Positions 9,225 through 11,233 of a stretch of DNA of 35,774 bases are shown piece by piece (position 1 is the first letter of the stretch; each line of letters starts with the position of its first letter). Origin of the DNA: a virus (lineage: Duplodnaviria > Heunggongvirae > Uroviricota > Caudoviricetes); the IMG/VR virus record IMGVR_UViG_2534681674_000025; one strand, written 5' to 3'. Below the pieces are notes generated by a model. That model had not been told where the DNA came from, did no database searches, and saw nothing but the letters and a program-made list of their open reading frames with translations. A program made the translations under genes and the position numbers.

Positions 9225-9677
9225 ATGGCAACTATCCCCAAAAAATGGTTACAACGCAAAATTGCAGACCTTGAATCGTGTCGTGAAGACATCCCGTTTG
9301 GCCTTGATGAAAACGATCACAATATGTTAATCGCACTGAAAATCGCACTCACATCGCTGGAAGCGAAACCTGTTGCATGGACTGATGATGAGGAACTGCG
9401 TGATGTCAAGCAGTATGGTTTCGGTGAGATATATCAGTGTCCGCCAGATAAATACGCGGACCTGCGACGTGTTATCCCTATGTATCGAGAGCCGCCAGCG
9501 CCAGCAGTACCAGATGGACTGGTTAGAGCGGTGCGTTTCTATGAACAGGTAAAGCGTGAGAATCCGCCAGTCGAAACTGGAGTATGGAAAGACGCTATTG
9601 ACTGGGTGACCAAAGAGGCTTGCCAAGCTGTAGACATTGGCATCAAAGTGAACCGCCCCGGGAATCCTGGAGACTAA
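9225..9677 (+). CDS. Hypothetical hotspot protein; last codons replaced by IS629 sequence (native protein about 143 aa ending ...DIGIKGE)
   Basis: AGGAGAGGAG RBS; ORF runs into the IS left end at 9649; removing IS plus one AAG copy restores a stop 2 codons later. Confidence 0.6.
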
Positions 9678-9702
9678 ACTCCCTGAGAAAGAGGTAAACA
9701 GG

Positions 9703-10044
9703 ATGACTAAAAATACACGTTTTTCCCCCGAGGTCCGTCAACGGGCAGTTCGTATGGTTCTGGAAAGTCAGGGCGAATATGACTCACAATGGGCGGCAAT
9801 TTGTTCCATTGCCCCAAAGATTGGCTGTACACCAGAGACTCTGCGTGTGTGGGTTCGTCAGCATGAGCGGGATACCGGGAGTGGTGATGGTGGACTCACC
9901 ACCGCTGAACGTCAGCGTCTGAAAGAGCTGGAACGTGAAAATCGTGAACTGCGCCGCAGTAACGATATCCTTCGCCAGGCTTCCGCTTATTTTGCGAAGG
10001 CGGAGTTCGACCGCCTCTGGAAAAATGATGCCACTGCTGGATAA
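9703..10044 (+). CDS. IS629 OrfA (HTH transposase N-terminal protein, 113 aa)
   Basis: HTH plus leucine-zipper-like region typical of IS3-family OrfA; A-rich stretch GGAAAAATG near its 3' end where the -1 frame OrfB overlaps. Confidence 0.88.
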
Positions 10045-10915
10045 GCTGCGTGAGCAGTACGGGGTCGGACCGGTATGCAGCGAACTGCATATTGCCCCGT
10101 CAACGTATTACCATTGTCAGCAACAGCGACATCATCCGGATAAACGCAGTGCCCGTGCGCAGCACGATGACTGGCTGAAGAAAGAGATACAGCGCGTATA
10201 CGATGAAAATCACCAGGTATACGGTGTGCGTAAAGTCTGGCGTCAGTTGTTACGGGAAGGTATCAGAGTGGCCAGATGCACTGTGGCACGTCTCATGGCA
10301 GTTATGGGACTTGCCGGTGTTCTCCGGGGTAAAAAGGTCCGCACTACCGTCAGCCGGAAAGCCGTTGCCGCATGCGACCGCGTAAACCGTCAGTTCGTGG
10401 CAGAACGTCCAGACCAGCTGTGGGTGGCTGATTTTACTTACGTCAGCACATGGCAGGGCTTCGTCTATGTGGCGTTCATCATTGATGTGTTTGCCGGATG
10501 TATCGTGGGGTGGCGAGTCTCATCGTCTATGGAAACGACATTCGTGCTGGATGCACTGGAGCAGGCGTTGTGGGCCCGTCGGCCGTCCGGCACAGTCCAT
10601 CACAGTGATAAAGGTTCTCAGTATGTATCACTGGCCTATACGGAGCGACTAAAAGAAGCAAAACTGCTGGCATCAACAGGGAGTACAGGTGACTCGTATG
10701 ACAACGCGATGGCGGAGAGCATCAATGGTCTTTACAAAGCGGAGGTAATACACCGTAAGAGCTGGAAAAACCGTGCAGAAGTGGAACTGGCCACACTCAC
10801 GTGGGTGGACTGGTATAACAATCGACGATTGCTGGGAAGGCTGGGTCATATCCCTCCGGCAGAAGCAGAAAAAGCTTATTATGCTTCCATCAGAAACGAT
10901 GATCTGGCAGCCTGA
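10025..10915 (+). CDS. IS629 OrfB (DDE transposase catalytic domain; normally expressed as OrfAB fusion by -1 frameshift)
   Basis: Overlaps orfA in the -1 frame; contains DDE/RNase-H-like transposase motifs (WVADFTYV..., HSDKGSQY..., DNAMAES). Confidence 0.85.
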
Positions 10916-10969
10916 GTTCACAGATAAAACACTCTCCAGGAAAACCGGGGCGGTTCAAAGGAGAGTGAT

Positions 10970-11233
10970 ATGGCAACTTTGACAAAAAAAGAACAAGCAT
11001 GGTTGAGCGAATTACAGGACGTTCTTGATCGCTGTCCATCACCGAAAAAAATTGGTTTTTACACCATTGGCGATAAAAGCATTTACCTGTATGACCTACG
11101 CCGCATGGATGAAATCATGGAGGCTCTTGATAATCGTTCGTCAATGGATTGGTGTGTTGCTGTCCATGATATGAATGCAGGGTTTGATGAAAAGATTTTG
11201 TTCCCCTCATCAGTTGAAAGCACAGCAGGATAA
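10970..11233 (+). CDS. Hypothetical hotspot protein (87 aa)
   Basis: ATG 10 bp downstream of the IS right end; RBS AAGGAG is partly formed by the IS target duplication; followed by a terminator. Confidence 0.6.
   Translation: MATLTKKEQAWLSELQDVLDRCPSPKKIGFYTIGDKSIYLYDLRRMDEIMEALDNRSSMDWCVAVHDMNAGFDEKILFPSSVESTAG

Follow-up and report, generated by a model that had tools for sequence, protein, structure and literature searches.

What do two small genes do that sit between the partition genes and the portal gene of a P2-like prophage, and does their position tell? The window analysed here is one strand of the viral DNA record IMGVR_UViG_2534681674_000025, 35,774 nucleotides (nt) in length. The genes in question are two open reading frames (ORFs), ORF1 and ORF2, which lie downstream of the replication gene gpA and the partition genes parM and parR. 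The gpA-gpQ interval has been defined as a hotspot of P2-like phages; it holds old and tin in P2, and roughly one in four of the P2-like phages of E. coli has a partition system at this place (Rousset et al. 2022, PMC9122126). A preliminary description of this DNA placed a protein of about 143 aa and one of 87 aa downstream of parR, split by a copy of the insertion sequence (IS) IS629, and regarded both as candidates for an accessory or anti-phage function. The layout was found as described. In our analysis, ORF1 and ORF2 emerge as single-gene cassettes that are independent of each other and stem from the early accessory pool of enterobacterial phages, which comprises the "ea" region in P22-like and lambdoid phages and the corresponding early regions of other phages. 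The best explanation, to which we assign a probability of roughly 0.55, is that they encode early accessory proteins that benefit the phage by binding a host or rival target, in host takeover, counter-defence or developmental tuning.

Both are real genes and not chance ORFs, as each is matched by PHROG families, has hundreds of conserved homologues and is annotated as a coding sequence in RefSeq. The exact four-gene arrangement of the locus is listed in Table S5A of Rousset et al. 2022 (PMC9122126), and the accessions of ORF1 and ORF2 are absent from the tested-systems table of that study (Table S2). No paper was found in literature searches for the accessions and the PHROG numbers, and the sequence motifs were not found in the supplements of two phage accessory-gene screens. 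The two proteins are thus already catalogued in RefSeq, PHROG and a published table, though uncharacterised, and they define no new kind of system.

The two genes do not travel as a pair. Among 5,426 complete E. coli genomes, ORF2 DNA was present in 979 (about 18%), with 1,196 places in all and no more than four in any one genome, and ORF1 and ORF2 occurred together in only 42. The genes 5' of ORF2 are varied and encode DUF4014, Ead/Ea22-like and XF1762-family proteins and various unknown proteins; in an O157:H7 lambdoid prophage ORF2 comes after replication genes. A neighbourhood search found no conserved partner of ORF2. The gene always lies within strings of small co-oriented early genes, and its remote homologues likewise occur in long runs of this kind. 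A reading of the two genes as a linked pair is not supported.

ORF2 was found by tblastn in 84 phage records. In the P22-like phage ST64T, where it is called Orf-87, and in phages L and Emek its place is the ea region, next to eaa1 and 3' of erf/abc. It is also carried by one Lambdavirus, by virulent Chivirus phages, by a virulent Nonanavirus (98% amino-acid identity), by the Vequintavirinae phage Av-05 (Avunavirus; rV5-like, virulent) and by phages of Klebsiella, Serratia, Vibrio and Aeromonas. Matches to the protein occur in 142 plasmid records. The 98-kb plasmid pM505-b has a gene for an identical protein, preceded by an Ead/Ea22-like gene, and the flanking ead/Ea22-like, DUF551 and pol III theta genes make this plasmid look like a phage-plasmid. 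ORF2 was also seen at 95-98% identity to the E. coli protein on short gut-metagenome contigs, L006, L007 (from the metagenome-assembled genome (MAG) "Segatella copri") and L014 (MAG "Collinsella sp."), of which the first two have E. coli-type Eaa-like neighbours beside it. These contigs, from Bacteroidota and Actinomycetota bins, are almost certainly mis-binned enterobacterial prophage DNA.

How are such mobile genes placed under the control of the resident phage? In the window, ORF1 and ORF2 end the gpA-parM-parR early operon of a P88-like (Xuanwuvirus) prophage and are arranged for co-expression with the upstream genes. Each gene is tightly joined to the preceding one, and the ribosome-binding site of ORF2 is formed by the codons that end the upstream gene, AAA GGA GAG TGA. 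The same joint recurs elsewhere. The ATG of ORF2 stands 0-2 nt past the upstream stop codon in 14 of the 19 distinct loci that include its 5' end (15 of 20 when the window is counted). Several loci have unrelated upstream genes that close with the same ...IKGE codons, AAAGGAGAG TGA, and so give ORF2 its ribosome-binding site. The junction ...ATCAAAGGAGAGTGAT ATG is found before ORF2 behind different upstream genes at loci L001, L002, L006 and L023. At these four loci, the approximately 20-nt junction GGCATnnnCATCAAAGGAGAGTGA ends unrelated genes before the next ATG, at 4990-5015 and again at 5480-5508 in phage PhiR44_2 (L002). In PhiR44_2 a near-copy of the junction stands before the XF1762 gene as well, so that the junction brackets this gene, which looks like a cassette inserted between two junction copies. 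This sharing of the junction suggests that cassettes are exchanged through recombination at the conserved joints between genes.

The XF1762-family protein itself (NCBIfam NF045478, E=5e-61; 5013-5504 in L002) is a frequent immediate 5' neighbour of ORF2 and is uncharacterised; its gene also lies upstream of ORF2 in UTI89 and ST131 prophages.

A consensus scan of the plus strand from 7700 to 11800 gave no promoter-like site, a crude search that would miss a weak or ParR-regulated promoter. ORF1 and ORF2 would be made together with the early genes in lytic development, or at a low level by read-through of the operon, and not by dedicated expression in the lysogen.

ORF2 belongs to phrog_1714, which it matches over its full length (E=1e-50), residues 1-87 covering profile positions 1-87 of 87. 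It is 60% identical to ST64T Orf-87, with which it shares length (about 87 aa) and motifs, and nothing sets it apart from that family. Across 54 full-length homologues from Enterobacterales the mean column identity is 66%. The family motifs are LTKKExAW, RCPSPxKIGFYTIGD, LYDLR and FPSxVESTAG, the last of which reaches the final residue, and C22, P23, K27, G29, Y41, R44 and P79 are invariant in the 54 proteins. ORF2 is hydrophilic and acidic (isoelectric point 4.7). Its AlphaFold model is confident, with a mean predicted local distance difference test (pLDDT) score of 91, and consists of a helix, two strands, two helices and two strands. No fold match was found in the PDB, PDB sequence searches gave chance-level matches only, and Foldseek against BFVD returned one homologue, which is unnamed. 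The phrog_1714 family has neither a function assigned to it nor a Pfam model, nor a structure that is solved or matches, and a Pfam search of all 54 homologues gave nothing meaningful. A profile search of 1.84 billion representatives recovered 196 clusters, nearly all of stand-alone proteins of 80-90 aa and with no informative domain fusion; the few longer members look like read-through or mis-started gene calls, or have unannotated extensions. A reading of ORF2 as a PD-(D/E)xK nuclease, from its GD...YDLR motif, was dropped, as no fold matched and R44 varies in remote homologues.

ORF2 is thus common, highly conserved, confidently modelled and mobile, and has no structural or functional assignment, which makes it a reasonable target for characterisation. 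Its binding target, once found, would annotate hundreds of phage and prophage genes, and might reveal a new mechanism of host takeover or counter-defence. It is possible, and we put this forward tentatively, that ORF2 founds a new family of phage inhibitors, for counter-defence or host takeover, with a fold absent from the PDB and spreading as a cassette between temperate, plasmid-borne and virulent enterobacterial phages.

The relationships of ORF1 are more intricate. Besides its match to phrog_660, its C-terminal module matches phrog_26213, and it partly matches several further PHROGs, a sign of mosaicism. Its homologues fall into 775 clusters, and different clusters share different parts of the protein. 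Residues 1-91 are 42% identical to ST64T Eaa1 (E=4e-16). The alignments show an invariant hinge, IALASLEAEPVAW (LASLEAxP), and a proline-rich linker, PLYxxPPAPxVP, around which alternative N-terminal and middle modules are swapped, with a conserved C-terminal module (...IKGE). Intragenic mosaicism of the kind that marks Eaa/Ea22-type proteins was seen in two alignments. Some relatives, which share other modules with ORF1, carry DUF551 or Ead_Ea22 domains. ORF1 itself has no Pfam match at E<=1, and so neither Ead_Ea22 (PF13935) nor DUF551 (PF04448), nor did it match NCBIfam or PADLOC. To judge from its sequence, ORF1 is an Eaa/Ea22-type modular protein without the Pfam signatures of that family. 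In the AlphaFold (AF2) model (pLDDT 72), made from the 150-aa form in the window, two helical hairpins enclose a small alpha/beta insert and, after it, a disordered linker. ORF1 may thus be a mostly helical adaptor, in which the hairpin shared with Eaa1 and the hinge LEAxPVAW would be followed by a swappable alpha/beta module, the proline-rich linker and the C-terminal hairpin.

The likeness to Eaa, Ead and Ea22 comprises the N-terminal module homologous to ST64T Eaa1 (91 aa), the hinge LASLEAEPVAW and the shuffling of modules; it extends to the nature of ORF1 as a non-essential, variable gene of an early operon and to the place of ORF2 beside eaa1 in ST64T. In other respects ORF1 differs. The C-terminal module of ORF1 (phrog_26213) is modelled as a helical hairpin, whereas Ea22 ends in an alpha/beta dimer domain, and ORF1 belongs to a P2-like early operon instead of the lambdoid pL operon.

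What follows parR differs from phage to phage. In P88 this place is taken by a ClpX-zinc-finger protein and a short ORF1-like protein, and ORF2 is absent. PhiR44_2 has the ClpX-zinc-finger protein, the short ORF1-like protein and the XF1762-family protein, then ORF2. In 520873, 503458 and Chuche, parMR is present with neither ORF1 nor ORF2. In the stored part of Table S5A, to which all counts from this table refer, an ORF2 allele occurs in 32 of 494 ParR-bearing loci and a close ORF1 allele in 9. The differing content among P88-like phages and the rarity at ParR loci mark ORF1 and ORF2 as accessory and not core replication genes. The preliminary description was right to see a tin/old-position hotspot with variable cargo, and by position and by varying content both genes qualify as cargo of the gpA-gpQ hotspot. 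The case that would have spoken otherwise, a core gene in every P2-like phage, was checked and does not hold at a frequency of 32 in 494. The GC content is 41% in ORF2 and 48% in ORF1, compared with 55-57% in parMR and gpA, which fits a recent horizontal acquisition of the two genes.

Then, what would the proteins do? An early lytic role in the service of the phage, and not the protection of a lysogen, is suggested by three observations: the families occur in virulent phages and in the ea regions of lambdoid phages, the crude scan detected no promoter that belongs to the two genes, and a defence or effector signature is lacking. That neither protein has a recognised motif had been noticed before, and Pfam, NCBIfam and PADLOC indeed gave no match for either. 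Nor did we find a catalytic signature, a transmembrane segment or a nucleotide-binding motif in the two sequences, or an enzyme-like fold in the models and fold searches. From these absences we propose stoichiometric binding of a host or competitor protein. In this respect they would resemble small phage inhibitors for anti-defence or host takeover, such as Ocr, Abc2 and Acr-type proteins, with the common features of small size, acidity, a cytoplasmic location, a stand-alone domain that has no enzymatic motif, and a gene in an early accessory region, which in some phages is near methyltransferases and anti-RecBCD genes. ORF1 might in addition have an Ea22-like effect on phage development. Several points weigh against this explanation. 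The binding role is deduced from missing catalytic features, with no homology that points to a specific target. The locus is a validated defence hotspot (PMC9122126), and many unknown genes of P2 and P4 hotspots score or test as antiviral in a 2026 study. Given the crude promoter scan, expression in the lysogen may also occur. Lastly, virulent phages can carry superinfection-exclusion genes, so that presence in virulent phages is not a strict argument against an anti-phage role.

Could one or both proteins instead be made in the lysogen and block other phages, as P2 tin and old do? The hotspot position is in favour, since several unknown cassettes there proved defensive (PMC9122126), and the variation of the cargo among P88-like phages and the low GC content, suggestive of horizontal acquisition, agree with it. 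In the 2026 study, six of eight tested unknown P4 loci are reported as defensive, and some unknown P2 proteins as giving antiviral prediction signals. Such a role nevertheless appears unlikely to us. PADLOC-DB v2 contains 0 families that match ORF1 or ORF2 at E<=1, and neither protein has an effector-like domain, a transmembrane segment or a nucleoside triphosphatase. The two families are frequent in virulent phages, within early regions, as well as in the ea regions of lambdoid phages. Coupling ties the genes to an early lytic operon, no own promoter was detected, and the two are not co-inherited. The arrangement has no accession match among the tested systems in Table S2. With tin and old the two genes share the place, gpA to gpQ next to cos, and the variability of the cargo. 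Old consists of ABC-type ATPase and TOPRIM nuclease domains, and P2 old and tin are expressed from the prophage. ORF1 and ORF2, in contrast, matched nothing in Pfam, NCBIfam or PADLOC, so that neither an ATPase nor a TOPRIM nor any further effector domain is seen, and their coupling is to the early operon. With 143 and 87 aa both are too short to be Old, and neither shows a Pfam or NCBIfam domain, although no direct alignment to Tin was made. Thus, of the function suggested in the preliminary description, the variable and accessory part stands, and the anti-phage part, taken from position, is not borne out by families so common in virulent phages. The result is a clarification: the tin/old position alone is insufficient to call a gene anti-phage.

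A second possibility is that the proteins are modulators like Ea22, which bias lysis-lysogeny or the timing of induction and are not aimed at competitors or defences. To our knowledge, no function has been assigned to Eaa, and Ea22 is the only one of these proteins with a reported (pro-lysogenic) phenotype. ORF1 shares modules with the Eaa/Ea22/DUF551 mosaic set, both genes lie in an early operon, and for lambda Ea22 a pro-lysogenic effect, an oligomeric state and a mosaic architecture have been reported (PMC10834534). We hold a purely developmental role to be improbable all the same, as ORF1 has no Pfam match to Ead_Ea22 or DUF551 and ORF2 occurs in virulent phages, which have no lysogeny decision. 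The place directly downstream of parR, in the same transcription unit, might indicate accessories of ParMR partition or gpA replication that help plasmid-like maintenance or replication, and ORF2 homologues do lie 3' of replication or ParB-like genes in the O157 lambdoid prophage, in a Nonanavirus and at locus L019. The comparative data argue strongly against such a function, which we regard as very improbable: ORF2 is not a consistent companion of parMR, as the 32 in 494 ParR loci show, P88, 520873, 503458 and Chuche have parMR without ORF2, and most copies of ORF2 are in phages without parMR, such as ST64T with its recombination/ea operon. Still less credible is a toxin-antitoxin-like pair, a notion that could arise from the small size of the two neighbouring genes and from their translational coupling, with 1 nt between stop and start. 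ORF2 is coupled in the same way to unrelated upstream genes (XF1762, Ead/Ea22-like, DUF4014 and others), the pair occurs in 42 genomes and ORF2 in 979, an IS insertion between the genes was tolerated in two lineages, and no toxin or antitoxin was matched in PADLOC or Pfam. It is the co-occurrence data that contradict both the partition-accessory and the toxin-antitoxin explanation. We retain phage-serving early accessory proteins as the best explanation.

In what state are the two genes in the present copy? The element between them has all the features of IS629: a length of 1309 bp (about 1.31 kb), 25-nt imperfect terminal inverted repeats, orfA (9703-10044) and orfB (running to 10915), a 3-bp target duplication AAG at 9646-9648 and 10958-10960, and 98% identity to elements annotated as IS629 in Stx phages. 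The empty site is found in E. coli 55989, where it reads ...GGCATCAAAG|GAGAGTGATATG..., and uninterrupted in many other strains, as ...GGCATCAAAG|GAGAGTGAT ATG. Deletion of 9649-10960, which the preliminary description had proposed, restores this site exactly. Without the IS, ORF1 has 143 aa and ends in ...DIGIKGE (9225-9648 plus GAGAGTGA), and its TGA stop codon stands 1 nt before the ATG of ORF2. As found, it has 150 aa, the last two residues (GE) being exchanged for 9 IS-encoded residues. The ORF1 protein of 55989 (WP_000201254.1) is 99.3% identical to the IS-free reconstruction, a near match and not an exact one, whereas ORF2 is 100% identical to the gene annotated as WP_000224220.1 in the same strain. 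The AAG duplication keeps the Shine-Dalgarno sequence of ORF2 intact. IS629 would nonetheless cut ORF2 off from upstream transcription and translation, and its expression here would come only by read-through from the IS.

Among complete E. coli genomes, OkiPb01713 (bovine, Japan) alone has the same IS-bearing locus. In the near-identical locus (99.3% over 3,801 nt) RefSeq annotates an "IS3 family transposase, programmed frameshift". The portal gene is damaged as well. Its in-frame nonsense codon, in the context aaa taa atg, stands where intact homologues, for example in PhiR44_2, have K-Y-M, and it splits gpQ into ORFs of 134 aa and 213 aa. The prophage is probably unable to make virions. The IS629 in the locus and the nonsense codon in the portal gene together indicate a decaying, probably defective prophage, and the ORF1-ORF2 pair is probably attenuated in this copy.

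Another transposase accompanies alleles of the two genes (WP_000201248 and WP_000224227) on contig NZ_QNSM01000028 in the available part of Table S5A, where the DDE_Tnp_1 protein WP_001352368 is listed with them. It represents an insertion independent of the IS629 of the window; its insertion point has to be read with the fact that the gene lists of this table are not in genome order.

The features of the hotspot, in the order gpA, parM, parR, ORF1, IS629, ORF2, terminator and gpQ, are collected in Table 1.

Table 1. Features from gpA to gpQ in the window, with coordinates, strand and supporting evidence.
Feature	Coordinates	Strand	Evidence and remarks
gpA replication endonuclease, 940 aa	5028-7850	+	Pfam Phage_GPA E=4e-131; left hotspot border
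parM, actin-like plasmid segregation ATPase	7927-8886	+	Pfam StbA_N E=9e-82 and ParM C-terminal domain E=8e-69
parR, centromere-binding adaptor of the Plasmid_stab_B family	8891-9205	+	Pfam PF10784 E=1.4e-24; phrog_2515 E=8e-51
ORF1, mosaic modular protein of predicted Eaa/Ea22 type	9225-9677	+	ORF listing; phrog_660 E=3.7e-43
IS629 (IS3 family), orfA and orfB	9649-10957	+	inverted repeats, empty site, 98% identity to annotated IS629
Conserved gene junction AAGGAGAGTGAT, with the Shine-Dalgarno sequence that serves ORF2 and the stop codon at which ORF1 originally ended	10958-10969	+	
ORF2, 87 aa, acidic stand-alone alpha/beta protein of the phrog_1714 / ST64T Orf-87 family	10970-11233	+	
Intrinsic terminator-like hairpin after ORF2, at the end of the transcription unit	11268-11288	+	9-bp stem, 5 GC pairs, then T-run
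gpQ, portal gene	11745-12791	-	ORF listing; in-frame TAA at 12387-12389; right hotspot border

Taken as a whole, the window is a P88-type member of the P2-like prophages (genus Xuanwuvirus). At its start, a 333-aa ORF on the minus strand (1-1002) is a putative integrase, named from its position alone, and structural genes are found further along after this first ORF. The counterpart of gpA is annotated as "replication endonuclease" in 55989 and OkiPb01713, and the parM product belongs to phrog_691, partition protein.

Two direct repeats of 38 nt (7784-7821 and 7857-7894), 74% identical and each with a hairpin ACGGGAnTnnCAnAATCCCGT, straddle the gpA stop codon just 5' of parM. They may represent a ParR-binding centromere, an operator or terminators. 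Further along, just upstream of gpR, a 626-aa protein (19511-21391, plus strand) has DUF1737, SASA (sialate O-acetylesterase) and DUF6645 domains and is the product of a NanS-p-like esterase cargo gene. A 201-aa ORF on the minus strand (27558-28163), just downstream of the ORFs at 24933-27514, has a weak hexapeptide-transferase match and possibly marks a second variable spot, with a cargo gene of acetyltransferase type.

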